Source: Candidatus Latescibacterota bacterium (GTDB taxonomy: Bacteria > Latescibacterota > UBA2968 > GCA-2709665). Taken from it: a DNA stretch of 64,000 nt. Shown piece by piece: positions 33,555-64,000 of the stretch (positions are counted from its first letter, which is position 1; each line of letters begins with the position of its first letter). The notes below the pieces were generated by a model. That model was not told the origin of the DNA, did no database searches, and saw nothing but the letters and a program-made list of their open reading frames with translations. The stretch lies in the NCBI GenBank assembly GCA_965208835.1, contig OZ242358.1:5088001-5152000 (forward strand). The letters run 5' to 3'. The position numbers were made by a program, and so were the translations under genes.

Positions 33555-36500
33555 TTAGTACGTCTTCGCGATCACAAAACCGGCGTCCTTCTCGACGGTT
33601 TTGCTGGTGTTCCGGTCCCTGACAGTTACTCTCAACAGGTATTTGCCGGGCGGACGGTTTTCAAGCTCGAGTTCCACGTATTCCGCTTCCTGGGCCGCCG
33701 TGCCCTGTTGTTCGTACGTAACGGAGAGTTCCTCACGTTTGCCTTCCCGCCATCGGGTCAGGCTGGATATGATACCGACGGCGCCGGGGTTGTCGTTCGA
33801 CGTGACCGTATAGGATACTTCGTAATCCGTCTGACCAAACTCGTCCTGTGACAGGTTGTAGATCTCGTAATAGACGAATACGCTCTGGCCTTTCGCGTAC
33901 GTCCGCGTGGGCATAGGGATCACACGCACCTCACCCTTGCTGAATCTAGATCCTGTTTGCTCCTTTTCAATTTGCCAGGCGAGTTGCAGATCGCTGATCT
34001 GTAATCCTTGCCTTCCGTACGGTTTTACGATTACCTCCTGACGATATCTGCCCCGGCTTTGGGACAATCGGTCCTTGATTCCAACCTCCATCAGGTAGCG
34101 CCCCGCGGGAACGGCCAAACGAACCATATCCGGTACGAAGCCGTCTCGCCTTCCGGTAAGGTCGCCGTCGTTTTCAAAGTTGATCTGTCCGTCTCTTCGG
34201 TAGACTGCGCCGGTCTGCCTGTTGACCAGCGTGACGGTCCGTTCAACCTCAATTCGGGTTTCGTTCTTCTCCTGCTCGTAGTGTCCCTTTACGTGAGGAA
34301 TGCCCAGATAAACTTCCAATGAGGATTGATCGTCTCTTCGAAAGTCCGCCAGATCGTAGTAAAACGTGAAAGGGTCTTCATTGGTTTCGAGCTTGTAATA
34401 GTTGGGCGTGGCGCTGGCGGCCTGGGCGGTGACGGTTCTCGGGTTGTAACGATTCAGACTGGCCTGTTGTCGAACGGGAATCCGCGCATCCGTGGGTGAC
34501 GGCGCAAAGTCGTAGATCCCGTTGTGAAATTCATCCGCAAAAGTGATCTCGATTCCGCCGCCGACGTCTGTGTAGACCCACGTCACCCATGCGACCATGG
34601 ACGCATCTTCCTCGCTGGAGACCGGCCTGTAGTTCGTGGGAGGAAGGGCATCGCTGGCGTGGTTGTTACTATCGTCCTCAATTTCCGCACTGAATTCCGG
34701 TCCTTCGCCCAAAGACTGCCGGAGGCTTTGAACGGGATAGACCGGGCCGGGATAGATGGACTCGAAGGGAGATACTTGAAGCTTATAATCTCCTGCCTTG
34801 TGACGGGTCCCGTCCACATCCACAGCGGATCGAAGAAAGTTCTTCGCTGGGACGGAGGTGCCGTAGATCGCCCGGGCAAGGCGTTCCTTGACCCGCTGGA
34901 CGGCAAGGCTCTGATCCGCGTTCATCATATCGGATCGCGACCGATGGTCCGGCTCCCCGAACCGCACGTACACATCGCCGCGGCGGTCCCAGGGTTGTCG
35001 GCCTGACGAGAAGCTGCGGCGCGCGTACCACACCCGGCGATAGTGCTCCAGCTGACGTTCGTTGGCCGACGTGGTTAAATCAGGGTCTTTTTCGGTCCAG
35101 AACCTCTGCAGGAACGCTACCTTTGACGCTTCCGGCAAGTTTTCAAAGGCTGCCAATTCGTCTTCCGACGCCACAAGGCTGATATCGCCGAAGAGCGCAC
35201 GATCCTCGGCGCTCAAACTCTCCAGGTATCTGCTGAAGTATACATCAGCCTGATCGAGGGCTTCCAGTTTCAGACATGCCTGAGCCAATATGGGCAGGAC
35301 TTCGGTGTCCTGGGGGTGCTGGCGGGCGTAGTCTTCCAGGAGTTCAACAATCCTGCCATACTCCCGGGACTTCAGGTAGACGGCGGCCAAACGATTCCGG
35401 CCCCGCGGATCATCGGGACGCAGAGACATGTACTGGGCGTAGTGGAGCGCCGCTCGTTCATAATCCTTGTGAAATGTCTCGTACCATTCCCCAAGAAGCA
35501 GATAGGCAGGTCCGAATGTCGGATCCATTTCCAGAAGCTTCTCACAGTCGCCTTTGACGTCGAATTCCTCTAGTGCGTACCTGATTTTGGCAATGTTGAA
35601 GCGCGCCTCGACATAGTCCCGGTCGTACTGCAGTGCCTTCTGGAAATATCGAATGGCGTCATGACGGGCTTTCGGGCGTTCCTGAAACACCAGGCCGAGG
35701 CCGTTGTACGCTTCGGCCAGTCTGTGGTCCAATCGGGTCGCCCGTTCGAACGATGCCAGCGCCTTATCCAATTGCCCCGACTCCAGGTAGGCATAGCCCG
35801 CCTTCGCGTGTCCCAGCGCGAAACGAGGCGCCACCCGCGATACCATTTCCAGCGCCTGAGGCGCAAGCGGATTCCCGGCTTCCAGCAGGGCGACCCCGGC
35901 AGAGAGAATAGAGTCGACCTGCGCGCGACCGATAGCCCGGTCCTGCACGCGGTCGCCAGGGGGATCACGGACCAGTTCAACCAGCCGACCTTTATAGAAG
36001 AAGCTGGTCAACATCGCTTCGTCCCGGTCCGCGTCAGACCGATAGAAGTAGCTGAACTCGCGACCGGATTCTGGGTCCGCAGGAGACCGAAAAAGCGCAT
36101 TCAGTACTTCCAGGTCTCTCTTTGCGGAAACTTGCGCTGCGGCCCAGGACTTGAGCAACGAAAGGGTTTCCGGTCGACGTCCGTCGTGCGCCAGGGCGTA
36201 TGCACGGAAGAGATCCCCGACAATCCGGAGATGGTCGCGGCAAACCCAGCGGGCGCCGTCTCTTCTGGCTTCTGCGGCTCTTCGTTCCAGTTCGCGCACG
36301 TATGCGTCAATCGGTTCAGCAAAGAATCCAATTGTCCTGTGTTGGCGGCGCATCGCCACGAATGCGGAAGCCGCCCGGCGATACTTCTTCGACGCGGCTT
36401 CAAAGTCCCATTGGTGCAGGGCTGTGTACGCCATGGCAGACGCCTGAAATGCGTTTCCAAGCGCTTGCAGCACGGCGTTTATTTTTTTCGATGCCGCATC

Positions 36501-36989
36501 TGACGTGCCGGTGTTGTATGCCTTTGTCGTGCCTCCACCCGAAACACCGGCGCTGCTTTCCTGGAAAATTCGTATCGACCCTTGATCAACGGGGAGTTCC
36601 CAGACACGCGGAGGGGACAGCGGAGATGACCTTCGTTCCATCAGGGGAATACCGATCATGTTTGTTTCAAGAGGTTTCTCACGGTAATAGAGCCGGTCTC
36701 CTGCCGAGTTCCATTCCAGGCCACGTGACTCTCCCGGGAATGTCCCGAGCCGACGTGTGTCTTGTGTCGTCTCTACCCACACTTCGGTCAGGCTCACCGG
36801 TCCCTCAGACCATGTAATCGTCCAGGCTTTCTTCTCCTTTGACGGATCGACCACGACGGTCTGTTGTGACAATGCATCGGAAATACCGATTGTCAGAATT
36901 GTCCAGATCGGCATTAAACGAAACATCGCCGGCAGAATGCCGCCGAATCGGAGGGAGATATGTGGACTGGATGGATTGGGTAGATGCAT
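33555..36989 (-). CDS. TPR + GWxTD-domain protein (PWDxRG variant, class A); start probably slightly downstream
   Basis: FWTEKDPDLTTSANERQLEHYRRVWYA...PWDRRGDVYVRFGEPD; TPR run; C-terminal FVYYEIYNL domain; signal-like N-terminus. Confidence 0.85.
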   Translation of the reverse strand: MHLPNPSSPHISLRFGGILPAMFRLMPIWTILTIGISDALSQQTVVVDPSKEKKAWTITWSEGPVSLTEVWVETTQDTRRLGTFPGESRGLEWNSAGDRLYYREKPLETNMIGIPLMERRSSPLSPPRVWELPVDQGSIRIFQESSAGVSGGGTTKAYNTGTSDAASKKINAVLQALGNAFQASAMAYTALHQWDFEAASKKYRRAASAFVAMRRQHRTIGFFAEPIDAYVRELERRAAEARRDGARWVCRDHLRIVGDLFRAYALAHDGRRPETLSLLKSWAAAQVSAKRDLEVLNALFRSPADPESGREFSYFYRSDADRDEAMLTSFFYKGRLVELVRDPPGDRVQDRAIGRAQVDSILSAGVALLEAGNPLAPQALEMVSRVAPRFALGHAKAGYAYLESGQLDKALASFERATRLDHRLAEAYNGLGLVFQERPKARHDAIRYFQKALQYDRDYVEARFNIAKIRYALEEFDVKGDCEKLLEMDPTFGPAYLLLGEWYETFHKDYERAALHYAQYMSLRPDDPRGRNRLAAVYLKSREYGRIVELLEDYARQHPQDTEVLPILAQACLKLEALDQADVYFSRYLESLSAEDRALFGDISLVASEDELAAFENLPEASKVAFLQRFWTEKDPDLTTSANERQLEHYRRVWYARRSFSSGRQPWDRRGDVYVRFGEPDHRSRSDMMNADQSLAVQRVKERLARAIYGTSVPAKNFLRSAVDVDGTRHKAGDYKLQVSPFESIYPGPVYPVQSLRQSLGEGPEFSAEIEDDSNNHASDALPPTNYRPVSSEEDASMVAWVTWVYTDVGGGIEITFADEFHNGIYDFAPSPTDARIPVRQQASLNRYNPRTVTAQAASATPNYYKLETNEDPFTFYYDLADFRRDDQSSLEVYLGIPHVKGHYEQEKNETRIEVERTVTLVNRQTGAVYRRDGQINFENDGDLTGRRDGFVPDMVRLAVPAGRYLMEVGIKDRLSQSRGRYRQEVIVKPYGRQGLQISDLQLAWQIEKEQTGSRFSKGEVRVIPMPTRTYAKGQSVFVYYEIYNLSQDEFGQTDYEVSYTVTSNDNPGAVGIISSLTRWREGKREELSVTYEQQGTAAQEAEYVELELENRPPGKYLLRVTVRDRNTSKTVEKDAGFVIAKTY

Positions 36990-37332
36990 TGGGATCCAGA
37001 TCTTCGGAATTTTCTCGCGGAATGCAGAAAGTGGAGTCTAACCTGATTAATTCAAGAATCGACGGATAATGAATTTCACGGAAGCAGAAAGAGCTTCCGG
37101 ATGAAACGAGAAACGAAAGAGCAAGGGCGGTGACGGATTTGGCGCGTTCACGCCGTTTGTATGGTGTGTGCCGGGAACACGATAGCGCCGTGGCGTCAGG
37201 TTGCCCTGAATCCCGCTATCGGAAGCACAAACACCTCCGTGGTTGTTGGTCGTTTCGATGCAAACGTGAAGGCGAGGTCAGCACGTCGATGGGTTATCGA
37301 ACACCTGTTGCCAGTCTTGAGAGCTATGTGGG

Positions 37333-38445
37333 TTAAGGCGTGAAGATGAAAATCTGATCCGTAATCGACTCAGGAGAATGACCGCCATCCGTCGTCTTCA
37401 ATCCGCCGGCGATAAGAACGCGGCCGTCATCGAGGAGCGTAACCGTCTGCCCGGATCGCCAAGATCCTATGTTGTGTCCCGTAGGTGAAAATACCTGGGT
37501 GTCCGGATTGTACAGTGCGATATTGCCGTTGTCCCGGTGGATGAAAAACACCCTGCCGGACGGCAGCAGCAGGGCGGCTAAGGGATCCATTACGGAAGTT
37601 CCGGCGGGCGAGAAGGTGTTTGTCTCGGGGTTGTAGATCTCGGGAGTCTGTGCGCGACGCCCGTCTCGCCTGTAGCCGCCGACGATCATTACCCTGCCGT
37701 CCTGAAGGAGCACCGCCTTATGGAGCATGCGGTCGACGTGCAGGCTGCCTGCCTCGGAAAAGGCTTCGGTCGAGGGATCATAGATGAAATTCTGTCCCAG
37801 CAACCATTCCCTCCCGATGGTTCTTCCTCCAACGATCAGCACGCGGCCGTCCTTCAACAAAGTCGCCGTATGCCCAAATCCTGGATGGTCCATCGCGAAT
37901 GTGTCGGAAAGTGCGCCTGTAGCGGGATCGAAAACACGCCATCGTCCACCCCCGGGGTGTCCGCTGAGTAAAAGGATCTCTCCGTTGGGCAACACGGTGG
38001 CAGTCTCGGTCCCGACCGAAAAAGGTGCGTCTGCAACGGTGTCGAATCTGCCGGAATGAGGATCGTACTTCTCAATGGGGAGTCTAAGGAAACTGGATAT
38101 AACCAGGACCCGACCGTCGGGAAGCAATATTCCGTGGTCCTTGCTGCGACTGGCGGTCAGGTCTCCCGTAGGCGTTGAGACCCCGGTTTCAGGATCGAAA
38201 ATCTCCGCGCTGACAAGAAGATCTTGCTCGATTACACCCCCTCCCGCAGGAGGTAGTGCCGCGTTGCCGCCGGCAATCAGGACCTTGCCATTCTGCAATA
38301 GTGTCGCGACATGCAAATTTCGCGGTCGAGTCAGATTTCCGACCTCATGGAGACCCCGTTCAAGGTCCGGCGCCGTCACCGAATCGCTTCCGCAAGCGCA
38401 GAGGCTCGAGAGGACTAACAGCGCAAGCAAGATTCTGGTGGTCAT
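37333..38445 (-). CDS. Kelch-repeat lipoprotein
   Basis: Lipobox LCAC; repeats H.ATLL.DGRVLI.GG...EIYDP. Confidence 0.88.
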   Translation of the reverse strand: MTTRILLALLVLSSLCACGSDSVTAPDLERGLHEVGNLTRPRNLHVATLLQNGKVLIAGGNAALPPAGGGVIEQDLLVSAEIFDPETGVSTPTGDLTASRSKDHGILLPDGRVLVISSFLRLPIEKYDPHSGRFDTVADAPFSVGTETATVLPNGEILLLSGHPGGGRWRVFDPATGALSDTFAMDHPGFGHTATLLKDGRVLIVGGRTIGREWLLGQNFIYDPSTEAFSEAGSLHVDRMLHKAVLLQDGRVMIVGGYRRDGRRAQTPEIYNPETNTFSPAGTSVMDPLAALLLPSGRVFFIHRDNGNIALYNPDTQVFSPTGHNIGSWRSGQTVTLLDDGRVLIAGGLKTTDGGHSPESITDQIFIFTP

Positions 38446-38488
38446 TTTCTTCTTCCCTCGTTGAGGAATGAACTGACATCCCCACAAC

Positions 38489-39040
38489 GTATCAGCCGTC
38501 GCCGACCCCTTCGACAGGCTCAGGGCAGCGCCTTCGACCCTTCGACAGGCTCAGGGACCGTAGGCCCAGGGCAGCGCGTTCGACATTTCGACGAACTCAA
38601 TGCAGGCAGGCTTAGGGCAGGTTACGGGTCTCCTGAAAGCGGCCCAATGACGTTAAATGAACGAATTAACGCGTGGTCATTGAGCTTGTCGAAATGCCCG
38701 CTATTCAACGACGCTTCGACCCCTCGACGATGGTTATTGCGAAGCATGTCATTCTAAGCGCAGCGAAGACTCTCCCGTCCGTTCCGTGCAGCAGGACGAC
38801 GTGCTGCCTCTCAGGTGTCGCCACGTGGTAATTGCACTGGGTTGATCCCATGCTGCAGTAGATCCTTCGTCGGCCTGGGGCGCCTCTGCACGACAATCTG
38901 ATCTCATGTGAATGAAACAGAAGTGATTCCTGGACGTTGCACCCTGGCCTCCTCTGGATGACAGCGGGAAGCATCGTGCTTGACGATCGGCCAGCCTGTC
39001 ATTCTGAGCGATGCGGGCAGACAGGAATGTCCGCCCCACC
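38489..39040. repeat. Patchwork of several intergenic repeat families
   Basis: CTTCGACAGGCTCAGGG units, TGTCATTCTxAGCG units (38748 and 38997) and a GTGG REP. Confidence 0.7.
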
Positions 39041-39172
39041 TTCACTTCGGCTTCCTCACTGCTTATGTTGGGATTCGATCCTGCCGTTCTCTTCGCTGAC
39101 GTCGCTTGGCGTGTATATCCTGAATCCCGTAGAGCCGTTATTCCATCCATGTTTCGGTTGGCCCCGACAATC

Positions 39173-39237: not shown

Positions 39238-39286
39238 GATACTGTATCAAATGTCCACCCGTAATCCGCACGCACGCCCACCTCGG

Positions 39287-40381
39287 CTAAGGGCGGTACG
39301 CAAGTATCTGATCGATGGACTCTCCATTTTTTGACCCGCCAATAATCAGCACACGCCCGTCGCGAAGCGCAGTAACGCTATACAGCTTGTAGTCTAGCCC
39401 GATACTGTGGCCTGTGGGATGAAATGTCCCGTTTTCAGGGTCGTAGAGTACCACGTCGCCGTTGCGGAGGATGAAAAATACATTCCCATTATTTAAAACA
39501 GCGGCAGCTCGAATCTGCTCGCTGCCCGGGCTCCCTGCGGGCAAAAACGTGCCGTTGGTGGGGTCGTAACGCTCAGCGGCCGTGACCTGCGTCGGAGAGG
39601 ACGGATCACCTATTCTGCCGCCTGCAATGAACACGCTGCCGTTCCGAAGCAGCAGCGCCGCATGTCCGTATCGCTCGTGCGTCAGACCCCCGACCTTCGT
39701 AATAATATTGGACGATGGGTCGTAGATTTCAGAATCTCTAACCGCACGATCGGTAATGCCACCGGTAATCAAGGCCCGCCCATCCCGCAGCATTGTCGCC
39801 GTATATGCCCCGCGAGGGACCGCCAGCCTGTTCTTGAATTCAAACTCGCCCGTTTCCGGATCGATCGTCCAGATCGCGCCGGATCGACCGAATGCAAGGA
39901 TTTTTCCATCTGAAAGCGCCATGGATTTGGAGATTTTTTCGAATGCGGGATTGAATTGAACTGGCGTAAATTCGCCGGTTCGTGGATTGAATATTTCCAC
40001 CGGGTAAGTCTTTGAACGGGTATGCTGAGTTGCGCTTGCAAATACAACCCGGCCGTCTGGCAGCAACGTTCCCTTGTCGTTCATTCGTGCGGTCGACATG
40101 CTGTGGGTTGCCCTGGAGGATCCGGTTTCGGGATCGAAAATCTCCGCACTGCTATGATACGTCGCGTATGCATCGGGCCCACCCGTCGCGGCGCCTCCAC
40201 CGATAAGTACCCTTCCGTCCTGCAACAATATCGAGTAGTGCGAGTGCCGCTTGTCCGTCATGCGTCCGGCGACTGCAAAGCCGATCCGTTCGCTCTTCGC
40301 CTCCGGGGACGTCGGCGCGGGCGAACCGCAACCCATCAGGCTTGAGACAATTGCCAGTGCGGAAATCATCCTGACGGTCAT
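39287..40381 (-). CDS. Kelch-repeat lipoprotein
   Basis: Lipobox LMGC; Kelch repeats; paralogue of 37333-38445. Confidence 0.88.
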   Translation of the reverse strand: MTVRMISALAIVSSLMGCGSPAPTSPEAKSERIGFAVAGRMTDKRHSHYSILLQDGRVLIGGGAATGGPDAYATYHSSAEIFDPETGSSRATHSMSTARMNDKGTLLPDGRVVFASATQHTRSKTYPVEIFNPRTGEFTPVQFNPAFEKISKSMALSDGKILAFGRSGAIWTIDPETGEFEFKNRLAVPRGAYTATMLRDGRALITGGITDRAVRDSEIYDPSSNIITKVGGLTHERYGHAALLLRNGSVFIAGGRIGDPSSPTQVTAAERYDPTNGTFLPAGSPGSEQIRAAAVLNNGNVFFILRNGDVVLYDPENGTFHPTGHSIGLDYKLYSVTALRDGRVLIIGGSKNGESIDQILAYRP

Positions 40382-40471
40382 CGAATGTCCTTCCACGGAA
40401 AATAAACGGGTAAAACCAAATCAGAAATCCACATCTCCCCAGATTTCATGCCTACGGCGTGTTCCTTAAAA

Positions 40472-40602: not shown

Positions 40603-40640
40603 CTTTGAGGAACCTCTCGCCCTGAATCCAGCAGGCATTA

Positions 40641-43600
40641 CTAAGGCGCAATAACAAACACAACGTCTTTCTCCGCCGTTTCACCGCTGTTCCTGTCTTC
40701 GATTGATACCTTCAGCGAGTATCGGCCCGGAACCTGTTCAGCGAGGTCCAATTCAACATATTCCACTTCCTGTGCCGCCTCCCCCTGCTGTTCGTAGGTG
40801 ACGGCCAGTTCCTCGCGTATCCCGGGTCGCCAGCGGAAGAGGCGGGAGATGTTGCTGGTTGCTCCCGGTATGTCTCTGGATGTGATCGTGTGGGATACAG
40901 TGTAATTGGTCTGCCCGAACCCGTCTTTCGCCAGGTTGTAGATTTCATAGTACACGAACACGCCCTGGCCTTTCTTGAACGTCCGCGACGGCATTGGAAC
41001 GACGTTCAGGTCTCCCTTGTTGAACGGGCTGTCCGCTCTTTCCTCTGCTACCTTCCAGGCCAGTTCCAGGTCGCTGATTTGCAGCCGGTCCTCTCCATAC
41101 GGCTCCACAACAACCTGCTGGCTGTAGGCGCCCATGCGTCCTCTGAGCCGGTCCTGCGACCTCACCTCCAGACGGTAGGCGCCGGGCGGCAGGTTCAGCT
41201 TCAGCACGCCGGGAACCTGGATGCCCTCTCCGGCCTGGTTTCCTTTCGCCTCGTACGTCAATCCATCCGATTGCCGGTAGACCGTGTCCAGCGTGGATGA
41301 AATCAGCGCCGCATGGTGCGTGAGCACCTGACGCGTGACGTTCTCTTCCGAATCGTAGTGGGCAGGCAGGATGGGGACCCCGTAGTAGATTTCCAGGAGG
41401 CTGCGGTCATCCTCGCCCCTGAAGTCAGCCAGTGAATAGTGGAAATCGAGAGGCGCCGACTCCTCTTCCGGCGCATAGTAATTGGGTGTTACACGTGCCG
41501 CTCGCTTGTAGATCTCTCTTGGAGAGTGGGTTCTTAACTTTGCGGTCTGGCCGAGGTCAATGTCACCCCGGTCGGGCGGCATCGGGGCGTATTCGTACGT
41601 TCCGGCGCCGAATTCGTCCGTAAAGGTGATTTCAAGGCCGCCGCCCACGTTTGTATAGATCCACGTTTCCCACGGGATGGTGCTCATGTCTTCGCCGGAA
41701 GTAACCGGTTGATAGTTGCCAAACCCCAGTCGCTTGTCCATATCCATGAGCCCCAGCTTGACGGTATCCATAACGTCCTCCACCGGTACGGGTCCCTCAA
41801 ACCCTCCACCCCCACCGGAGAATTCATCCCCACCTCCGGAACTACCGCCTTCGCCGGGCGGTCCCACATTACCCCTACGCGGACCCGGAGTCTCCGCTTC
41901 TGGAAACTCGTACCATTCGCCCTCGAGTCGTCGCTTGCCGCGTATGGGAAAGACCGGCCCCGTAAACGTCTCTCCCATTCCATCGCCGCCGTAGATATTC
42001 GCGGCGAGGCGTTCCTTGACCCGCTGAACGGCCAGGCTTTGTTTGTAGTTGGGCCGATCCGATCTGGAGCGGTGGTCCGGTTCTCCAAACCGGATGTAGA
42101 CCTCGCCTCTGATGTCCCACGGCTGCTTGTTCTCCGAAAATTCCGTGAGCGCCTGCCAGACACGACGGTAGTGTTCCAGCAGGCGTTCGTTTACCGGCGT
42201 GGACAGGTCCGGATCGCGGTCGTTCCAGAACCGTTTCAGGAATGCGGCCCGTTCACGCTCGGGAGTATCGTTGAATTCGGCCAATTCTTCCGATGACGAG
42301 ACCAGGCGGATATCTTCGTACAAACCACGCTCATCCGGCGCGAGTTTTTTTACGTAGTCCTGAAAGAACTCCATTGCCATGTCGGCCTTTCCCTGCTTCA
42401 TGGACGCCTGCGCGACGATCGGCATGAGTTCAATCGCATCGGGGTTCTCCGCGACGAAACCCAGCAGCTTCGCCATGATTTTCTCGTAGTCTTCGATCAT
42501 CAGGTAGGCGACGCCCAGCCGGCTGCGCAGACCGGAATCGCCGGGTCTCAGCGCCATATATCGGGTGTACCAGACAATGGCCTGTTCGTAGTCCTTCCAG
42601 AAATCGGCGTACCACTCGCCCATCAGGCGATAGGCGTCCGCATAGTCCGGGTCGAGCTCCAGCACCCGTTCGACCGCGCGGCCCACGTCGTATTCATTCA
42701 ACTGGTAGCGCATTCTTGCGATCTGATATCGGGCGTCCACGTACCCGTGGTCACGGGCAAGGGCCTCCTGGAAATAGTGGATGGCCAGGTTGCGTTCCTT
42801 CGGAATCTCCGCGTAGACCAGACCCACACCGTAATAGGCCCTGGCGCCTCCCTGTAGAGAGATCGCTTTCTTGAAAGCCCACATCGCCCGCTCGTAGTCT
42901 TCCGCCTTGTAGTACGCGTGGCCGAGTTCGATATGGAGAGGCGCGTCCTTCGGGCGCTGGACGGCAACGAGACGGAACAGTCCGGCCGCCTCCCGCAGCC
43001 GGTTCTCTCTGGTGCGCTGCACCACAACCGCGAAAAGAGAGTCGACCGTCTCGGAACGCATATCCACCGCCTCGAGGCTTCGCGCATCCGGCGTTTGCGT
43101 CAGGTGAAGATACCGGTCCGAGTGCCGGAAACACGCCAGGATTGGCATGCCGGGAGCGGCGTCCGGCCGATATAGATATTCGATCAACGGCTCCGAATCG
43201 GAAGTTGTCGGACAGCTGAAGACAATGTCGAGGACTTCCTTGTCTCGCCTGAGTTCCGGTTCGCTGGACGCCTGCATATCTACGTTCTGTTTCATCCACC
43301 CATACAGAACGCTGTGTTCATTCGGAAGGGCGCCGTGCTTTTCGGCGTAGCGGTGCGCCAAGTCGTTCAATACGAGCATGTGTTCCAGGCAGGCATGCTC
43401 TCCTGCGGCGGCGCCGGTTCTCAGCTGTTGCTCGCGCAGCGTCGCCACGTACGCGAGGCAGCTTGCTTTCGACATCCGGAGGTCCTTGTGATGTTTATGG
43501 AATCCCGCGAACATCCGTTCAACGGCCTTTCGCGCGTCCTTCTCTCTGTGGCGGTCCGCCCGGTGCACGGCTGAATTCATCCGGCTGATCCGGATCATTC

Positions 43601-44465: not shown

Positions 44466-44525
44466 CCTGGAGCACAATACTCCAGGACACGGAGAATTAC
44501 GTTTACGAATCTTAATTTCGGTCAA

Positions 44526-45572: not shown

Positions 45573-45685
45573 TTTACACAAATCTCCTGCTGGTCAACGA
45601 ACCACGACGCGTGCGCGATTCGGTATATGACGTCTCAATGCCCAAGACCATTATCGATAAGGCGATTCACGGCTCCTGATCGAAC
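45573..45685 (-). repeat. Conserved ~110-bp spacer of the FGE tandem array; copies at 46715-46826 and 47877-47996
   Basis: Shared CACGCGTCGTGGTTCGTTGA..AGCAGGAGAT.TGTG and CCGTGA.TCGCCTT. Confidence 0.85.
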
Positions 45686-47876: not shown

Positions 47877-47996
47877 TTCACACAAATCTCCTGCTTGTCA
47901 ACGAACCACGACGCGTGCGGGATTCAGCATTCGGCGTACAATGCCTCAATGCCCGGGACCAATCCCGACAAGGCGACTCACGGATCTATACTGATT

Positions 47997-49034: not shown

Positions 49035-49112
49035 TTCCAGGATGCCTTCAAACCGCCTGGTGCAGGTATATGTGAGCGCCAAAGTTCAGGTTTCCAGTGA
49101 CCGACAGTCTTT

Positions 49113-56475: not shown

Positions 56476-58827
56476 CTATTCAACCACACGGAACACTACG
56501 TCCCGTTCAGCGGTCTGACCGGTGTAGAGGTCCTTCACAGCAACGACCAGCTTGTGGAAACCCGCCGGGGCGCTGCTGGCATTGATCTGCAGGAATGTGA
56601 AGTCATCGTTCTTATATCCCTGGTAACGTGCTGTAACAGTAGTTTCCGCTCCTTTACGCAAACGAGACGCTGCTTCGATCTCCTCGGAAATCTTATTGCG
56701 TTCCGGCAGGATGTACTTTACTCGATAACTCACGGACGGCTGTGCCTGACCACTATCCTTAGTGTCCCCTACGATAGTCTGAATCTCCGTGACGGCACCC
56801 TCGCCCGGTACGTCCAGAGCGGCGAAGCGTTCCGGGAAAATTTCATCCGGTTTCGGCTGCGTTAATCGGTAGGAAATCCGGTATTTGGTTCTCCCGAATC
56901 GGTCCTTTCTCAGATTGTAAATCTCAAGATAGAGAAAGACCGGCTCCGAACGCCCGTAGGTGTGTAGGGGATTTGGCGTGACCCGAAGATCTTCACGACC
57001 CTCGGGAAAGGCCGATTTTGGCTCAATCCCAGAAGCCAATAGTAGATCGCTCATCGCCACTAACGAGTCAGTCTCCCGAAATACCAGCCGTTCGTGAAAG
57101 GTCCCTATCGATCCAGTGCCATGGTCCCGAACCTCCACTACGAGACGGTGCGGCACCGGCGAGACACGCAGCGTTCGGAATGACACAACATGGTTGCGCC
57201 TTAAACTTTCACTCTTTGTCCTTTTCCTTGTGTCGAAAACTGGCCACCGCATGGTCACGCCCATCTTCTTCCGATATACCTCATTCCAGTAATCATTGAA
57301 AATAAACACCCCATCATCCAAGTCCAGGAATCCACCGGGATCTGAAACCTGCACGCGCGCCTTAGGGATGGCGTAGGCGAACTCGACGCGAATACTGTCA
57401 CGCTCCCTGAAAGCGGCGACTTGGCGCGGCATCCGATATTTCACGTCACTATAGGGGTCAACGTAACGCTGTGGTGTATTTTGAAATACCTGTCGTGCGT
57501 GTGGCCGCGTTCCTTTCAAACGTTCCCGTCGGCTTTTTCCCGAATAAAAGTCTCCCAGATCATCTCGCATCCTTGTAATCTTGACTGCACTCTTACCCAC
57601 ACACACCCAATAGTCCTTCGTCGATTCTCTCGCACTCCTTCCTGTATTCGATCCTCGCGCAAAACGCCAGGCGTCCAAACCGTCACCGTTCTCGAACCAA
57701 ATGCGAAACTTCCCATAATTCCAAACCTTCCAGTTGGTAAAGACATCTCGACCTATATATCGTCCGAATTTGATGAACGCTTTCCCCGGATCAGTCTGCC
57801 ACCCCATGATGCCCTTGAAAGGGCGGGAAAACCTGAGATTTGCGTAAGCAACCCGCCCGTAGTGTTCCATCTTTCGTTCATTGAATTCCGTCAGAAACAG
57901 GGGATCCTGCTTGCGCCAGAAGCTTTCGACACTGTCATTTGTCCAAATCTCACTTCCATTGTGATCGATTGTAACCGCCTGAGCCATACGTCTCGTTTCT
58001 TCCTTTGACGCGATAATGTCCACCGACTCCATCAAGGATCGCTCTTCGACGGTCATTCGTTCAATGGCTCGCCGGTAATAGTCATAAGCTACGTCCATTT
58101 CACCGAGCATATGATAGCCAAGACCACAGAACAAGAATGCATCCTTGTCATCGGGAAATTGTCTCAAAAGACGCTTGAACAGCAATACCAACGCTTCCGG
58201 TTCTCCAGTCTCGACATGGAGGAGTCCCATCATTTTGTACGCGCCTTTAAATCCAGGATCCGCTTCAATGCTTTGCCTCAAAAGCCCGTGCGCGCGTTCC
58301 ACGGCTCTTTCGGCGAAACCCTTCCAGTAGAACACATGAACATCACGAGATTTTTTGAAGGAGACGAATTCCTTTTTATCGATCAACGCGAGATACTCCT
58401 GTACCGCGAAAAATCCCGCCCGGTACGCACCTTCTGCATTGCCTGTGTGAATACTTGCCATCTTTTGAAATTGTCGTCCCGCATTGTACGTGAATCCCTG
58501 CCTGCTCAGCAACTCACCCATTGTCAACTGGTATTCGCTGTTCGACGGATCAATCCGTATGGCCTCGTTCAGCGCGTTACGTGCGCTCTGGCGCGTAAGT
58601 GGCGTGTTCATTTCGTTGTACAGTTTTGCAATCTGATAGTGCGCTGGCGCGAATTCCCAGTCCAGCTTAAGGACCTGCTCAAATGCGTTGATACCCTCCT
58701 TCGGTGGTACCTGGCCGATCTGAGTCAATGCTTCGCGATAGAGCGAGTCCACTCGCGCAGACTTTGACAAGGCGAGTACATCGCTTGCCGACTGGAACAT
58801 TAACATTGAGACCAATAGATGTCTCAT
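56476..58827 (-). CDS. TPR + GWxTD-domain protein (class B)
   Basis: FWRKQDPLFLTEFNERKMEHYGRVAYANLRF...GWQTDPGKAFIKFG; GGAGG RBS. Confidence 0.9.
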   Translation of the reverse strand: MRHLLVSMLMFQSASDVLALSKSARVDSLYREALTQIGQVPPKEGINAFEQVLKLDWEFAPAHYQIAKLYNEMNTPLTRQSARNALNEAIRIDPSNSEYQLTMGELLSRQGFTYNAGRQFQKMASIHTGNAEGAYRAGFFAVQEYLALIDKKEFVSFKKSRDVHVFYWKGFAERAVERAHGLLRQSIEADPGFKGAYKMMGLLHVETGEPEALVLLFKRLLRQFPDDKDAFLFCGLGYHMLGEMDVAYDYYRRAIERMTVEERSLMESVDIIASKEETRRMAQAVTIDHNGSEIWTNDSVESFWRKQDPLFLTEFNERKMEHYGRVAYANLRFSRPFKGIMGWQTDPGKAFIKFGRYIGRDVFTNWKVWNYGKFRIWFENGDGLDAWRFARGSNTGRSARESTKDYWVCVGKSAVKITRMRDDLGDFYSGKSRRERLKGTRPHARQVFQNTPQRYVDPYSDVKYRMPRQVAAFRERDSIRVEFAYAIPKARVQVSDPGGFLDLDDGVFIFNDYWNEVYRKKMGVTMRWPVFDTRKRTKSESLRRNHVVSFRTLRVSPVPHRLVVEVRDHGTGSIGTFHERLVFRETDSLVAMSDLLLASGIEPKSAFPEGREDLRVTPNPLHTYGRSEPVFLYLEIYNLRKDRFGRTKYRISYRLTQPKPDEIFPERFAALDVPGEGAVTEIQTIVGDTKDSGQAQPSVSYRVKYILPERNKISEEIEAASRLRKGAETTVTARYQGYKNDDFTFLQINASSAPAGFHKLVVAVKDLYTGQTAERDVVFRVVE

Positions 58828-59184
58828 TCCAGTGAGTCTCCTCCGATGTCTCGAGGCATTCGAGCCGCCCGGCTTTCTAATACCAAGTAGGCCCCCTTGA
58901 ATTGCTAACGCATCCCGGGCTGTCTGCTATTGCATGAATCGACATTTCATCCATGAAATTCGAACCGGCATTCACAACAGGCTTCCGAGTACACCAAACC
59001 CACGTGAATTCGTCCCGCTTCCATTAGCTTCCATTATAAAAAGACACACGCCGCGCTGGGCGGGTTCAATTAACCTGAGATCTGCCCTCGGACAGAAGAC
59101 CCCTGCATCCTCCAGTCGTTGCGTGACGCCTTAACCTCTTGAATTCCCGTCGGAATGGCTGGTCGCTCGGCCTTCTTCAGCACT

Positions 59185-59200
59185 TGCAATCTTCGTACCA
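59185..59200 (-). promoter_or_regulatory. sigma54 -24/-12 promoter of the GWxTD cluster
   Basis: TGGTACGAAGATTGCA versus consensus TGGCACG-N4-TTGCW. Confidence 0.8.
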
Positions 59201-59247
59201 GACTCCATAATAAAAATCGCCTGTGCGGTTACGCACAAGCGAAATAA

Positions 59248-59260
59248 AATCAATATCTTA
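59248..59260 (+). promoter_or_regulatory. IHF-binding consensus
   Basis: AATCAATATCTTA matches WATCAA-N4-TTR and lies between the promoter and the UAS. Confidence 0.65.
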
Positions 59261-59297
59261 TGAATTCACATTTTACGCTTTTTTGAAGCGTTCAATT

Positions 59298-59442
59298 CAT
59301 GATGTATACATTGTATACATCATGGTCTTTTAGATGTTGCTCCTCCTGAATCGTCCGTGTGTAGAATACTAAGTTGCAAGTTCTTACAGCTCACGCAACA
59401 CTGTCTACAGTGTCACGCCCGTAACTGTATACAATGTATACA
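59298..59442. promoter_or_regulatory. Enhancer sites: TGTATACA-N-TGTATACA twice
   Basis: 27-bp palindrome CATGATGTATACA-T-TGTATACATCATG (59298-59324); second copy 59426-59442; variant TGTCTACA at 59402. Confidence 0.75.
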
Positions 59443-59465
59443 TATGCTTGCCTTGAATTCGTACC

Positions 59466-62400
59466 TTACCTCAGACCGTACCGGCTCATCATCTTTTGCA
59501 GTCCGTTTCGACTCAGCCCCAGTTGGCGCGCGGCGCGGGTGATGTTCCCGTCGCACTGATTGAGCGCTTCGACGATCATCCGCCTCTCGAGGGACGCGAC
59601 ACGGGACTTGAAATAACTCCCATCACCTGACCGGAGTTGCTCGGGAAGCCCGATTCTTTCTGAGAACAGATCGGCGGAGACGTCTTTGCCTTCCTCCACC
59701 AGCGCAACCGCGCGCCTTATCTCGTTCTCCAGTTCCCGCACGTTGCCCGGCCACCCGTGATCCATCAACGCCCGCATGGCCGCTACCGTGAAACCCGGAA
59801 CCGCCTTATTCTGGTCCGCGCAAAGACGGTTCACAATGTGTTCGCATAACAATGGAATGTCTTCAATGTGGCGGCGCAATGGGGGCATTTCAATCTGCAA
59901 CACACGCAGTCTGTAATACAGATCCTCCCGAAAAAGGCCGTTGCGCACATCAGCTTCCAAATCACGATTCGTCGCCGCGATCACCCGCACGTCCACGTTT
60001 CGTACCTCTGCCTCGCCCACCCGCTGGATTTCCCCGTCCTGAAGCACCCGCAACAGGCTCGATTGGAGCTGTGCGGATGCGTTTCCAATCTCGTCCAGGA
60101 AGACCGTGCCGCCGTCCGCGGATACGAACAATCCCTTCCGGTCCGACGACGCCCCGGTAAAAGCGCCCTTCCTGTGTCCGAACAGTTCGCTCTGAAGCAG
60201 CTCGTGGGTCATTGCGGCGCAGTTGGCGGAGAGAAACGGCTTCGCCTTGCGTTCGCTCCGGCTATGGATAGCCCGGGCAGCCAGCTCCTTGCCCGTACCC
60301 GTCTCACCCTGTATGAGCACGGTCATGTCGCTTTCAGCCGCAACTTCCACCAGCTTGAAAACCTCCTGCATAACGTCGCTCTGCCCAACGAGTTCTCCCA
60401 GGCGGTAGCTTTCCCCGGTCTGTTTCTGCAAGAAAAGCGCACGTTCCTGGATCCGGGAGTACATCCGGGCGTTGACAACCGCAATGGACACCAGGTTCCC
60501 AAACGCCGACAAAAGGGCGCGGTCTTTTTCGGTAAACAGATCCTCGAGCTCCCTGTGGTCCATGTAGAGCGCGCCGATAACGCCAGATTCCCCGTGCCGT
60601 AGCGGTACGCACAGAACCGAACGGATGCCGTAATCGGTAACACTCGACCTCTGCCTGAATCGTTCGTCTACTCGAGCGTCCAGGCTCAATACCGGCTCGT
60701 TTCGCTCCATCGTCCACTTGATGATTCCCCGGCTGATCTCGTGCGTTTCGACATCGTCGAGGTTATGCCTTCGCGCCACTTCGACGTGAACAGTGTCCTC
60801 GTCCTTTAACGCAATCAACACGCGTTCGGCCCGGCTCACCTTCCTCAAGCGGTCCAGAATCCGGTCCAGAAGCACGTTCAGGTCCAGGACCGACGTCAAG
60901 ACCTCGGAAGCCTGGTAAAGCGTTAGCAGATGTTTCTCGGAAAGCGCGGGAGCCATCTCCTTTGCGGGAAGCGTTAATGCAGATTGCTCTGAAACCCGAT
61001 CCAGAAGATCCGCCGCCTTCCCGGCAAGATAGCGCAGACTCAGCCGCTCGGCAGCCCCGCGGGCGTCTTCCAGGTACCGCCGGGCGTCGGCAAGACGACA
61101 CCGCTCCAGATAGTAAGCGCCCGCTACAACGTACAGAATTACTTGCTCATGACCGTCCAGCGAGCCCTGGGCTTCCGATACATGATCGAACAGGGAATCG
61201 ACATCGTCATGCCGGCCGGCCGCGGCAAGCGATTTTGCCTTCGCGGTCCATGCCATGGCGCGAATATTTCCGCCGTACTCCACGCCCGGCCAGGCCCGTT
61301 CGGCCCAGGAAAGCGCCTCTTCAACGCAGCCGGTCTCAGCCAGCGTCTCGGCCAGCAATCCGTAGGACCGGTACACATGATGCATGCGCCCGCCATCCGA
61401 CAATAAGCGCTCAGCAGATCGAGCATGCGTTTCGGCACTAGCGGTGTCTCCCTGTTCCAGGGCGATCCAGCCCAATCGATGATGTGCTCCGGCCTCCGTA
61501 GACTTCGAACCTCGCCTGGCCCAGAAGTCTCGATGTTCCTGGAATATCTCCTTCGCACGATCGAAATTTCCCAGTCGGATCTCTATACGTCCCAGCAGGA
61601 AAAGACTGCCATGGCGATTGGACCGATCCCCTGCCCTGTCCATCAGATCCAATGAAGACTCAAGGAGCGTCCTGGCTGTTTCATTCCGATAGGTAAACTG
61701 TGCCGAAAACGCGAGATAATTCAAGGCACGCGCCTCATTGACGTCCCCTCCCAATTCCCGGCATCTTTCAGCGGCTGACTCACAAAATCTCTCGGCTGTT
61801 TTCAATTCCCTCAGCTCAAAGTAGATATTGGACAATAACCCCACAACACTCATTTCAGACTCGTCGTCGCCCAATTCTCGGAAGAGACCCAGGGCCTCCG
61901 ACAACACGGATTCGGCCTCTTCATAATCCCCGAAATGGATGTGGTTTATTCCCATCATCCTCAACGCGTACGCTTTCTGCCGCGGTGCATCGGCGGACAC
62001 CCACCGCATGACGTGATCCAATTCGCGCCGAGCGTCCTTGTACCGGTCACAACCGGAGAGCGCCTCGGCGTAGGCGCAGAGGAAATCCAGGTGCGCCACC
62101 GACCCGCGAGAAACGCCGGCCGGCGCGTCGGGTGAGAATGCGCCTTTTTCAAGAATCGCTTCGAACAGCTCCAGGGCGTGCGAAAAGTCCCACATCCGCA
62201 ACGCCATTCGGCCGGATGCCGTTACGTACTGTGCCATTTTTTTCAGGTCGTTCGATCTCGAGAAGTGGTAAGCCAGTTCATCAAGCGTCTCCAAGCCGCC
62301 GGACTCGGAACGAGTCTCCAGCGCCCTGCCTGCCTCCAGGTGAAGTAACGTACGTCTGTTCTCGGATATGCCGTCATAAACCGCCCGTTGAATCAATCCA

Positions 62401-64000
62401 TGAGAAAAACGATACCGTCCCTCTCGGTCCTGCAGATCCTTCAAGAGGCCCAGGCGAACGTGTCCCTCCAGCGTCTCCAACAACTGCAGTTCGTCTTCGC
62501 GCCAGACCTCTGCAATCAGGCCGAATGAAAACGCGCCGCGAAAGATAGAGGCATATTCCAGCGCCTGCCTTTGGGCCGAACGAAGCCGTTCCAGGCGCAA
62601 CTCGATGGCCTGCACAATGCCCGAAGGCATCGGCCATTCCCTGGACTCCGGCCATCTCCACCCGCCGGCCGAATCCCTCCAAATCAAACCTTCTTCAACC
62701 GAACCGCGGATCATTTCGACGACAAACAGAGGGTTTCCCCCGGTCTCCGCGAAAATCCTGCGAGCTTCCGCGTCGGGGACCGCCTGCTCGCCAATCAGGG
62801 ACGCTGCCAGATTCCCCGTTTCCTCCATTCCGAGAGGCTCGAGTTGAAGATGCAAAACGCCGGTTGCGTCAGGCCCTCTAGTCAGGTCGTCAATTCCCCG
62901 GGGCAACGGGTCTTCGCCCACCTTGCGGCAGGCGAGCCCGAAGACGAGGGGCACTGGATCAGGACCTCTGCTCATAAAGCCGAGGAACCGCAGGGTCAGG
63001 TCGTCGGCCCACTGCAGGTCTTCAATGCATACAAGGGTGGGCGTTTCCCGGCTCAGGTCGTCGAATAATTCTGACATAGTCTCCATTGCCGGGTACGGAT
63101 CCGGCTGATCGGCGGGCGCCGGCCTTTCGATTAGCGTTAGGACTCGCCTGACGGATGCTTCCAGATCCGACGCCTGCATGCCCGGCTGTTCCGCAATGTC
63201 GCGCAGGGCTTCCAGGAATGGACCGAATGGAGTGCCGCCGTTTTCATAGCAACGCCCGGTGAGAACGCGCATTCCCTGAACGCGGGCATCGGCCTGAAAC
63301 TCTTCCAGGACCTGGGACTTCCCGATACCGGCCTCTCCGCTCACCAGCACCACGCGCCCCGTCCCGTGACCGGTTTCTCTCAGGATCTCCCGTAACGCCT
63401 TCATCTCACGTTCTCGCCCCTGAAATTGAGGCTGCAGAACGGGAGCGTCCCTTGTGCCCTCGACGTGAGGTGGACTGAAAGAATCGTCGCCGCGCTCCTG
63501 ATCGGACCCGGCTTCCTCCTCTTCCATGAGATCGTGCAACAGGCTCCCTACGGAACTGTAGCGATCGATGGGCTCCTTCTCCAGCAGTTTCATGACTGAT
63601 TCTTCGATCGGGGAGAAAGCACCGCCGGTAGACGGGCGCGGCGGTGGGGGCAGGTCTCTCAAATGCTGGAACATCACCGAAGCCGGATTCTCGCCCGTGA
63701 AGGGCGGTCTCCCGGTGAGAATTTCGTATAGCACGACACCCAGAGAATACAGGTCCGACCGCTGATCCGTTCGCCGCGCACGAATCTGTTCGGGCGACAT
63801 GTACTCCACGGTCCCGGTCGGTCTGCCCGGCGGCGTCACACGCTGTTCCGCGGACTCCCGAAAACGGGCCAGACCCAGATCCAGAATCGAGACCTCAAGT
63901 TCGCCTTCAAACTCGGAAATCATAATATTCGAAGGCTTCAGGTCCCGGTGCACCACACCCTGTTCGTGGATATACGCCAGCCCATCTCCGATCTGCCGGA
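59466..64000 (-). CDS. Ser/Thr kinase - AAA ATPase - TPR - GAF - sigma54 activator - Fis HTH fusion (5' end outside the window)
   Basis: HRDLKPSN, DLG, YMSPEQ; GEAGIGKS, EDLQWAD, GGNPLF; GAF; GETGTGKE, GAFTGA, FREDLYYRL; terminal HTH. Confidence 0.93.
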   Translation of the reverse strand, partial: RQIGDGLAYIHEQGVVHRDLKPSNIMISEFEGELEVSILDLGLARFRESAEQRVTPPGRPTGTVEYMSPEQIRARRTDQRSDLYSLGVVLYEILTGRPPFTGENPASVMFQHLRDLPPPPRPSTGGAFSPIEESVMKLLEKEPIDRYSSVGSLLHDLMEEEEAGSDQERGDDSFSPPHVEGTRDAPVLQPQFQGREREMKALREILRETGHGTGRVVLVSGEAGIGKSQVLEEFQADARVQGMRVLTGRCYENGGTPFGPFLEALRDIAEQPGMQASDLEASVRRVLTLIERPAPADQPDPYPAMETMSELFDDLSRETPTLVCIEDLQWADDLTLRFLGFMSRGPDPVPLVFGLACRKVGEDPLPRGIDDLTRGPDATGVLHLQLEPLGMEETGNLAASLIGEQAVPDAEARRIFAETGGNPLFVVEMIRGSVEEGLIWRDSAGGWRWPESREWPMPSGIVQAIELRLERLRSAQRQALEYASIFRGAFSFGLIAEVWREDELQLLETLEGHVRLGLLKDLQDREGRYRFSHGLIQRAVYDGISENRRTLLHLEAGRALETRSESGGLETLDELAYHFSRSNDLKKMAQYVTASGRMALRMWDFSHALELFEAILEKGAFSPDAPAGVSRGSVAHLDFLCAYAEALSGCDRYKDARRELDHVMRWVSADAPRQKAYALRMMGINHIHFGDYEEAESVLSEALGLFRELGDDESEMSVVGLLSNIYFELRELKTAERFCESAAERCRELGGDVNEARALNYLAFSAQFTYRNETARTLLESSLDLMDRAGDRSNRHGSLFLLGRIEIRLGNFDRAKEIFQEHRDFWARRGSKSTEAGAHHRLGWIALEQGDTASAETHARSAERLLSDGGRMHHVYRSYGLLAETLAETGCVEEALSWAERAWPGVEYGGNIRAMAWTAKAKSLAAAGRHDDVDSLFDHVSEAQGSLDGHEQVILYVVAGAYYLERCRLADARRYLEDARGAAERLSLRYLAGKAADLLDRVSEQSALTLPAKEMAPALSEKHLLTLYQASEVLTSVLDLNVLLDRILDRLRKVSRAERVLIALKDEDTVHVEVARRHNLDDVETHEISRGIIKWTMERNEPVLSLDARVDERFRQRSSVTDYGIRSVLCVPLRHGESGVIGALYMDHRELEDLFTEKDRALLSAFGNLVSIAVVNARMYSRIQERALFLQKQTGESYRLGELVGQSDVMQEVFKLVEVAAESDMTVLIQGETGTGKELAARAIHSRSERKAKPFLSANCAAMTHELLQSELFGHRKGAFTGASSDRKGLFVSADGGTVFLDEIGNASAQLQSSLLRVLQDGEIQRVGEAEVRNVDVRVIAATNRDLEADVRNGLFREDLYYRLRVLQIEMPPLRRHIEDIPLLCEHIVNRLCADQNKAVPGFTVAAMRALMDHGWPGNVRELENEIRRAVALVEEGKDVSADLFSERIGLPEQLRSGDGSYFKSRVASLERRMIVEALNQCDGNITRAARQLGLSRNGLQKMMSRYGLR

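Follow-up and report, generated by a model that had tools for sequence, protein, structure and literature searches.

A sigma-54-linked array of GWxTD, FGE-fold and Kelch genes behind a kinase/STAND/enhancer-binding regulator in a Latescibacterota bacterium

The DNA analysed here, called the window throughout, is a stretch of 64,000 nucleotides from Candidatus Latescibacterota bacterium (assembly GCA_965208835.1, contig OZ242358.1, positions 5,088,001 to 5,152,000 of the forward strand). Its list of open reading frames (ORFs) has twelve long ORFs in one orientation on the minus strand, running from 63998 to 33555: the gene of a very large regulator and, behind a sigma-54 promoter, eleven cargo genes, which the Pfam and NCBIfam models divide into five TPR–GWxTD genes (G1–G5), four genes for proteins with a dockerin-like module and the fold of the formylglycine-generating enzyme (FGE; F1–F4) and two Kelch lipoprotein genes (K1 and K2). 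The original prediction for this locus had named eleven co-oriented genes in these three families and in this gene order, and the ORF list and both model collections agree with it: TIGR04514 matches 5/5 of the G proteins, PF03781 4/4 of the F proteins and Kelch models 2/2 of the K proteins, and PF00158 is present in the regulator. The N-termini had been described as signal- or lipoprotein-like; both Kelch proteins do have a lipobox-like motif (LMGC or LCAC), and the other nine are signal-peptide-like as judged by eye. The features of the cluster are as follows, in the direction of transcription.

59466..64000, minus strand: regulator gene (Pfam, NCBIfam and genome ORF); the 1628-residue protein starts 352 bases past the end of the window
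59426..59442: inverted repeat 1 of the upstream region, made of two TGTATACA half-sites; ∼235 nt ahead of the promoter, candidate enhancer site
59297..59325: inverted repeat 2 of the upstream region, palindromic (13-1-13) about TGTATACA; ∼112 nt ahead of the promoter, candidate enhancer site
59217..59242, minus strand: terminator-like hairpin of 11 pairs (7 G–C) with a T run, between the regulator and the promoter
59185..59200, minus strand: sigma-54 −24/−12 promoter element, a 16-mer found as a consensus match
58828..59184, minus strand: leader of ∼350 nt, from the alignment of window-type loci; no Rfam match
56476..58827, minus strand: G1, TPR–GWxTD protein of 783 residues (TIGR04514, 50.0 bits)
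52189..55959, minus strand: G2, long TPR–GWxTD protein of 1256 residues (TIGR04514, 59.5 bits)
49263..51653, minus strand: G3, TPR–GWxTD protein of 796 residues (TIGR04514, 56.4 bits; no match to PF20094)
47997..49082, minus strand: F1, signal peptide followed by a dockerin-like module (double EF-hand) and an FGE fold without the cysteine pair (Pfam, NCBIfam)
46827..47885, minus strand: F2, architecture as F1 (Pfam, NCBIfam)
45686..46714, minus strand: F3, architecture as F1 (Pfam, NCBIfam)
44526..45581, minus strand: F4, architecture as F1 (Pfam, NCBIfam)
44462..44490, minus strand: hairpin of 13 pairs with a T-rich tail, after the F4 stop and ahead of the likely start of G4; may be a terminator or an attenuator
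40641..44525, minus strand: G4, long TPR–GWxTD protein, ORF of 1294 residues (TIGR04514, 64.1 bits)
39287..40396, minus strand: K1, Kelch propeller lipoprotein (Pfam Kelch, lipobox-like motif)
37333..38487, minus strand: K2, Kelch propeller lipoprotein (Pfam Kelch, lipobox-like motif)
33555..36989, minus strand: G5, long TPR–GWxTD protein of 1144 residues (TIGR04514, 56.3 bits)

The regulator consists, in order, of a Hanks-type kinase, an AAA_16 (STAND-like) NTPase, TPRs, a GAF domain, a sigma-54 AAA+ activator and a Fis-type helix-turn-helix (HTH) domain. Pfam gives 238.6 bits for Sigma54_activat (PF00158), 43.6 bits for HTH_8 and 81.5 bits for TPR_12, and the motifs are intact in the translation (HRDLKPSN in the kinase, Walker A in both NTPase domains, and GAFTGA). 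The sigma-54 AAA+ domain with GAFTGA and the DNA-binding HTH together class the protein as a bacterial enhancer-binding protein (bEBP), and the AAA_16 match (111.7 bits, cut-off 32.6), followed by TPRs, gives it the make-up of a STAND/NLR-like sensor, for which nucleotide-dependent switching is predicted. Its score with the TOMM kinase/cyclase fusion model (235 bits) is far under the cut-off of 705, and in PADLOC only generic kinase and RtcR-type AAA–HTH models match. The closest known regulators are bEBPs of the NtrC/NifA/PspF class, which it resembles in the GAFTGA-bearing sigma-54 AAA+ domain and the C-terminal Fis-type HTH, and also in the layout of its control region, with palindromes ∼110 and ∼235 nt before a −24/−12 promoter that lies beside the regulator's own gene. 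That class senses with a receiver or one sensor domain, whereas this protein has kinase, AAA_16, TPR and GAF segments spanning ∼1200 residues. A literature search had no paper on this kinase/STAND/GAF/bEBP architecture among the matches listed.

The stop codon of the regulator is at 59466–59468, and the terminator-like hairpin at 59217..59242 would end the regulator transcript just ahead of the promoter; a homologous hairpin and T run are visible in an alignment of 13 regulator loci. Scored against the −24/−12 consensus of sigma-54 promoters, the element at 59185–59200 matches at 11 of 12 positions, with the GG and GC correctly spaced (10 nt apart), and the position of its −12 part places the predicted transcription start near 59175. 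Sites this good number 38 on both strands of the 5.18-Mb genome, so that ∼0.002 would be expected in the 638-nt spacer, and rpoN is present in the genome. The original prediction had placed a sigma-54 promoter directly behind the gene of a kinase/ATPase/TPR/GAF/bEBP protein of more than 1500 residues, and this is what is found. A looser sigma-54 pattern is not enriched across the window (46 found, 56 expected), and a pattern scan of the other intergenic gaps of the cluster gave no further sigma-54 site. The two TGTATACA palindromes are seen solely in loci of the window's genus among the 21 regulator loci compared. The ∼350-nt leader is conserved among window-type loci and is unrelated to the small ORF of the radical-SAM loci described below; an Rfam search in E-value mode over 33000–64000 returned no matches, and thus no known riboswitch or leader.

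For comparison we took 20 full-length relatives of the regulator from two families of the order (91% to 43% identity), each with the 20 kb that follows it. A −24/−12 element with 9–12 of 12 consensus positions lies ∼240–270 nt after the regulator stop in 21/21 loci, the window included. As the promoter is in the same place in every locus, regulator and promoter are taken to be one cassette, conserved across the order as judged from these loci, and the proposed pairing of a STAND-type kinase/bEBP with an adjacent sigma-54 promoter thus extends well beyond a single genome.

The cargo behind this cassette is of two kinds. GWxTD arrays are found only behind the six closest orthologues of the regulator (78–91% identity; 6/6), together with FGE genes in five of the six; Kelch genes are also present in the arrays. 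A GWxTD gene is the first gene after the promoter in all six species, although its subtype differs and in one of them a DDE transposase is inserted between the promoter and this gene. Copy numbers and gene order vary as well, and in another close genome two genes are split; together these differences indicate that turnover of the array between species is rapid. At locus L012 (genome G009; oriented positions 3993–7762 and 9217–10255) one orthologue of G2 and one of F3 are each broken into a pair of ORFs, possibly frameshifts or decaying copies.

The other 14 loci have a first long gene encoding a protein of 476–535 residues in all cases except L022 (13/14). It is a radical-SAM/SPASM peptide maturase in the seven loci scanned with Pfam, three of which were also scanned with NCBIfam, scoring 254–266 bits with SCIFF-type, 248–253 bits with nif11-type and 234–253 bits with QhpD-type models, all under the equivalog cut-offs. 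Between promoter and maturase, 13 loci (L016–L021 and L023–L029) carry a conserved ORF of ∼60–105 residues, ∼30–140 nt past the promoter (locus positions ∼780–1100, counted with the regulator first). Its product has a single conserved Cys and a motif rich in Trp and Pro, to which the sister family adds an Asp-rich tail; in six aligned loci of the genus a ribosome-binding site can be seen ahead of the ORF. A small ORF and a maturase under a kinase/STAND/bEBP regulator look like an undescribed peptide-modification circuit. Locus L020 additionally carries YcaO, ThiF-like and ABC genes.

The small ORF and the maturase are both missing from window-type loci. The window, G009, G013 and the radical-SAM locus of G002, another species of the genus, share the upstream order FGGY kinase, IlvD, CarboxypepD_reg/Plug receptor, DUF4249, SBP_bac_5 and regulator (G008 and G014 only in part, with 16 kb fetched), and by this common synteny the radical-SAM-bearing locus of G002 is the positional orthologue of the window cluster. 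The G002 operon comprises the maturase, an AhpC-like protein, an NHL protein and ApbE; an FGE-fold gene and then a long GWxTD gene follow the operon's ApbE at spacings of 24 and 38 nt, and the full array lies farther on. Since this positional orthologue keeps the small ORF and the maturase, we infer that the window's lineage lost the peptide/maturase head and that the array moved up to the inherited promoter.

With TIGR04514 all five G proteins score well over the cut-off of 28 bits (50.0–64.1) and are thus GWxTD members; by Pfam PF20094 G4 alone is over the cut-off (27.1 bits, cut-off 26.9), and three others score 17.6–23.3. The family is large, with 32 matches in this genome and 8–41 in each of 41/41 relatives of the order; for other families of the phylum, first-look candidate counts point to much lower numbers, the full search having been run at an E-value (1e-25) too strict for proper counting. 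A full-text literature search for 'GWxTD' found no paper, and thus no function assigned to the domain, and a 458-residue copy sits among unrelated housekeeping genes that give no functional hint. G5 was modelled with AlphaFold (60 relatives, mean predicted local distance difference test score 84.4) as an N-terminal beta and helical part, about eight TPRs, the GWxTD region (alpha/beta with two disordered loops) and two beta-sandwiches. TPR proteins dominate the Foldseek matches of the whole model. The last beta-sandwich best resembles the Wzt carbohydrate-binding domain (Z 10.6, root-mean-square deviation 2.9, 111 residues), and Foldseek with the C-terminal model gave the biofilm scaffold RbmA as the top match (E 7e-9, with a TM-score of only 0.16/0.31) among generic tandem beta-sandwich matches. 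A single complex prediction, of G4 57–490 with F4 25–351 and with alignments as input, scored 0.00, which is no evidence either way. The N-terminal regions of G4 (∼60–300) and G2 show, by eye, repeated SPDG- and WS.DG-like motifs and four conserved cysteines, which suggests a TolB/PD40-like propeller with a disulfide-bonded helical part; no family model matched this region. The likely start of G4 is Met33, at 44429, giving 1262 residues and matching three relatives. Translational coupling of F4 and G4 was considered and rejected: the 0-nt gap between them depends on an unlikely TTG start, and the probable start leaves 97 nt containing the hairpin.

F1–F4 are 342–361 residues long and match PF03781 strongly (130.8–145.2 bits, E 1e-38 to 4e-42). 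Copper-dependent FGEs have a catalytic, copper-binding cysteine pair near the C-terminus. The mature chains of F1–F4 have a single cysteine each, at 204–223, and none in the last ∼130 residues (the C-terminal third), so that formylglycine-generating activity is very unlikely. Among solved structures the closest is PvdO (E 7e-23), ahead of the human and bacterial FGEs, PorK and Treponema denticola variable protein 1; F1–F4 are like PvdO, PorK/GldK and the T. denticola protein in having the FGE fold with the catalytic cysteine pair absent, and unlike them in forming a tandem array with a dockerin-like module. The PvdO equivalog model gives 98–114 bits (cut-off 500). After the signal peptide comes a module of two EF-hand-like loop–helix repeats, which falls short of a type I dockerin (19.0–25.2 bits with NF041540, cut-off 29) and is not among the 44 Dockerin_1 matches of the genome, although it is 40–65% identical to modules in ∼70 other ORFs, several of which score as Dockerin_1. 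Within F1–F4 this module is the most conserved part (87–94% identity) and patches of the head fall to 41–59%, as would be seen if a shared anchor carried heads that diversify. The suggestion that the FGE-fold proteins are exchangeable binders is in keeping with both features, an apparently non-catalytic fold and a conserved module on variable heads. K1 and K2 pass the Kelch cut-offs with 76.8 and 85.1 bits for Kelch_6 and 62.4 and 59.5 bits for Kelch_4.

Genome-wide, nine of ten Kelch paralogues (two of them in the window) lie within 5–10 kb of a GWxTD match, as do six or seven of 11 FGE matches (four in the window), against 0.6–1.0 expected for the latter. At least three types of GWxTD cassette recur within the genus. 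The first, that of the window, has an FGE array, a long GWxTD gene, Kelch, a 526-residue protein of no family, a long GWxTD gene and Kelch, although the ∼526-residue gene, which relatives have in the K1–K2 part, is absent from the window. The second has runs of GWxTD and Kelch genes with a PF01663 phosphodiesterase and an HTH protein, and the third a DUF6785 membrane protein, an aminotransferase, a long GWxTD gene, FGE, NHL and a sulfatase. From these neighbourhoods, the grouping of the three families is real within the genus. At genome positions 222888–252186 (L002 and L003) lies a paralogous cluster of five GWxTD and seven Kelch lipoprotein genes, which also encodes a PF01663 phosphodiesterase and an HTH protein. 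FGE genes are absent from it, no bEBP lies beside it, and an IS1595 transposase flanks it.

A second set of neighbours gives a hint of what GWxTD proteins may serve. The genome has five triads of a CarboxypepD_reg/Plug barrel (1050–1230 residues), an ∼800-residue protein of no family and a PorV-like barrel (∼330 residues), whose PorV-like copies were located by tblastn with the genome's own PorV-like protein. Their positions in the genome (G000:C1) are as follows.

630378–644676: barrel triad; also two FGE-fold genes, a TPR protein and a heparinase-like gene
3582847–3589663: barrel triad
3749542–3756218: barrel triad
4183893–4190527: barrel triad
4576057–4582478: barrel triad

Two of the PorV-like genes were scanned and score 158–162 bits on the PorV/PorQ family model (cut-off 90). 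Four of the five triads have a GWxTD gene 2–7 kb away, and across the genome seven of 18 CarboxypepD_reg matches are within 15 kb of a GWxTD gene, against 2.1 expected. In the sister family, locus L082 has two ∼810-residue proteins, like the triad barrel and the 800-residue member, and then a PorV-family barrel at the head of a GWxTD array, and two more sister-family loci have the same pattern of ORF sizes. GWxTD genes thus adjoin CarboxypepD_reg/Plug and PorV-family barrels elsewhere in the genome and in the sister family, which recalls TonB-dependent transporter loci with accessory surface binders (SusC/SusD-type loci, Oar-type barrels), and the products of the window cluster are, like the accessory binders of TonB-dependent loci, TPR-rich, propeller-bearing, lectin-like and exported. 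Unlike SusC/SusD-type loci, the cluster itself has no barrel, SusD family or glycoside hydrolase, and its link to barrels is by analogy with these other loci only.

We favour, at a rough probability of 40%, a reading in which a sigma-54 switch controls an inducible satellite array that changes quickly and whose products bind ligands or act as adaptors in the envelope, serving barrel modules. The eleven cargo proteins appear to be exported, fast-evolving and non-catalytic. On this reading a signal sensed by the regulator would switch on, through sigma-54, at least the first GWxTD gene and perhaps the whole set of eleven; the encoded proteins would be exchangeable parts that capture ligands or serve as adaptors, in the periplasm or at the outer membrane, most likely for the TonB-type barrel/∼800-residue/PorV-like modules that adjoin GWxTD genes elsewhere in the genome. 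For the ligand, a glycan or some other polymer would be the first guess. PMC3162934 ties sigma-54 to the bacterial exterior. The original prediction of an inducible, multi-paralogue surface apparatus fits in so far as the cargo looks exported and multi-paralogue and the promoter is conserved; its proposal that GWxTD proteins are scaffolds for FGE-fold and Kelch binders is conjectural, and the recurrent partners of GWxTD genes elsewhere are outer-membrane barrels, which are absent here.

Several observations weigh against the satellite-array reading. No barrel or PorV-like family is found among the 13 cluster proteins with Pfam or NCBIfam, nor is there a PorV-like gene within the window by tblastn with the genome's own PorV-like protein, and the closest TonB-type receptor is ∼8 kb upstream of G1, ∼5 kb past the regulator start, where it is paired with a DUF4249 gene; the dockerin-like modules could instead have the canonical cohesins elsewhere in the genome as their real partners. 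The Wzt match is generic, dozens of Ig/PKD/CBM-like domains lying within one Z unit of it, and the fold searches (Foldseek, VIA) barely covered the GWxTD region itself. The idea of a dedicated, sensor-switched apparatus has the conserved regulator–promoter pair in its favour, but the cassette seems to have been inherited from a peptide/radical-SAM operon and not built for this cargo. Joint occurrence of the three families did not turn up beyond the genus: in five genomes from other genera, FGE genes lie near GWxTD genes no more often than chance predicts (1–2/10, 0–3/19, 0/7, 2–3/24 and 0/5), and a K1 query found no K1-type Kelch protein in 3/3 sister-family genomes. The three families may thus be neighbours by genus-specific duplication and not functional partners. 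The intergenic gaps from G1 to G5 are 516, 535, 180, 111, 112, 104, 0, 244, 799 and 343 nt, and those of 516, 535 and 799 nt, with the hairpin between F4 and G4, allow separate transcription units in place of a single 25-kb operon. The hairpin scan overall is not above shuffles (17 found, 15.1 expected).

The strongest competitor, which we regard as a real but lesser possibility, is that there is no single system: the duplicating GWxTD, FGE-fold and Kelch families would merely happen to lie behind a regulator cassette whose peptide and radical-SAM cargo was deleted, with at most the first gene or genes under sigma-54 control and the rest driven from promoters of their own, for unrelated functions. 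The peptide and radical-SAM head retained by the positional orthologue in G002, the long gaps and the hairpin after F4, the lack of F and K linkage to GWxTD outside the genus, the insertion elements at or in arrays, and the existence of GWxTD arrays without an adjacent bEBP, such as that at 222888–252186, all fit such a juxtaposition. It is harder to reconcile with the GWxTD gene that comes first after the promoter in 6/6 of the closest species despite its differing subtype (and, in one, a transposase before it), with the common orientation of all eleven genes, with sigma-70-type sites in the cluster that show no excess over shuffles, with three paralogous cassette types in which, from species to species of the genus, GWxTD stays next to Kelch or FGE, or with the FGE and GWxTD genes in G002 that stand only 24 and 38 nt behind the genes of the radical-SAM operon.

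A further alternative, less probable again, is an inducible adhesive or matrix layer that needs no barrel, in which cohesin scaffoldins on the cell surface would hold the F proteins by their dockerin-like modules, with GWxTD and Kelch proteins as binders of matrix or host ligands. The organism does have a cohesin–dockerin system: three Cohesin matches are over the cut-off (genome positions 4917220, 4927615 and 628504), as are 37 of the 44 Dockerin_1 matches, and one cohesin protein, of 1602 residues and with a FlgD_ig-type C-terminal Ig-like domain, is encoded beside a gene with a type IX sorting tail (4916884–4921692, L087:6884–11692). The relatedness of the F modules to modules in ∼70 other ORFs and the RbmA match of the G5 C-terminal model, poor as its TM-score is, also point this way, and a passage of PMC7081726 cites cellulosome-affiliated extracellular enzymes in Latescibacteria, which we count for this alternative; a literature search joining Latescibacteria and dockerin found nothing related. 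F1–F4 are like the parts of cohesin–dockerin assemblies in their tandem EF-hand-like repeats, in a genome with canonical cohesins and many dockerins, but unlike those of cellulosome-like assemblies in that the modules are under the Dockerin_1 and dockerin_GC cut-offs, the cargo is a cysteine-poor FGE fold and not an enzyme, and Pfam finds no cohesin in the cluster. Pfam and NCBIfam also give no type IX sorting tail for the F, G or K proteins, and their route across the outer membrane is not evident.

It is very improbable that F1–F4 are working formylglycine-generating or related oxidative maturases for the 17 sulfatases of the genome or for the GWxTD proteins, as might be read from the strong PF03781 matches, those 17 sulfatase matches and a paralogous cassette with an FGE-fold gene two genes ahead of a sulfatase; the one cysteine per mature chain with none in the last ∼130 residues, PvdO and not an FGE as the best solved relative, and export signals (by eye) all speak against it. 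Least likely of all is a contribution of the cluster to a type IX secretion or gliding machine, in the form of PorK/GldK/GldJ-like FGE folds, TPR and propeller proteins, for although GldK, GldJ and PorK are among the weaker F1–F4 matches and the genome has type IX sorting tails and PorV-family barrels, the GldK model (TIGR03525) gives only 70.9–76.0 bits against a cut-off of 350, F1–F4 have no lipobox-like motif, unlike PorK/GldK, and no PorL, PorM, PorN or Sov-like family was matched in the cluster with Pfam or NCBIfam.

If the barrel link of the favoured satellite-array reading is true, such arrays would supply accessories to an undescribed machinery for uptake or display at the outer membrane. 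A bolder version, which we offer as speculation with the odds well against it, has the GWxTD, lectin-like FGE-fold and Kelch proteins of this genus, in arrays that change rapidly, as combinatorial plug-in receptors on a few shared barrel/PorV-like machines, setting what is captured or displayed, with one array switched by an NLR-like kinase–bEBP that originally sensed or controlled a radical-SAM-made ribosomal peptide, and hence a circuit from peptide signal to envelope remodelling. GWxTD is a large unknown family, at 8–41 copies per genome across this order, and the locus puts one GWxTD array under a reporter-testable switch, alongside two further families of probable binders, as well as showing the speed at which an array changes between species. 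The regulator family is perhaps the more general finding: a kinase, STAND NTPase, GAF and sigma-54 activator in one protein, with a sigma-54 promoter always ∼250 nt behind its stop codon and usually ahead of a small ORF and a radical-SAM/SPASM maturase.

The remaining features belong to the downstream part of the cluster and its edge.

38749..39150, minus strand: ORF of 133 residues within the 799-nt gap, of no family (Pfam, NCBIfam)
33405..33500, minus strand: remnant of the C-terminus of a MacB-like permease (69% identity over 32 residues)
30826..33332, plus strand: IS1595-family transposase and DNA methylase, convergent with the cluster; downstream boundary

A MacB-like permease follows the G5 orthologue in a relative, and the window keeps only its last ∼32 codons; by this comparison the remnant marks a broken downstream edge of the cluster. 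The IS1595 transposase ORF flanking the paralogous cluster at 222888–252186 is equal in length to the window copy and has identical Pfam scores. PADLOC matched 0/10 of the cargo and ORF proteins to defence-system models (a set without F2 and F3). The sequencing runs listed for this stretch include no RNA run; several metagenome runs contain small shares of it (0.09–0.13). At window positions 690–4502, a heparinase II/III-like protein (931 residues) and a Kelch protein (329 residues) are encoded amid sugar oxidoreductase genes, with no connection to the cluster as far as examined. Elsewhere in the genome, at 205371–219902 (locus L001), a perfect-consensus sigma-54 site (12/12) lies beside a response-regulator bEBP and precedes five tandem MacB/FtsX-type permease genes.

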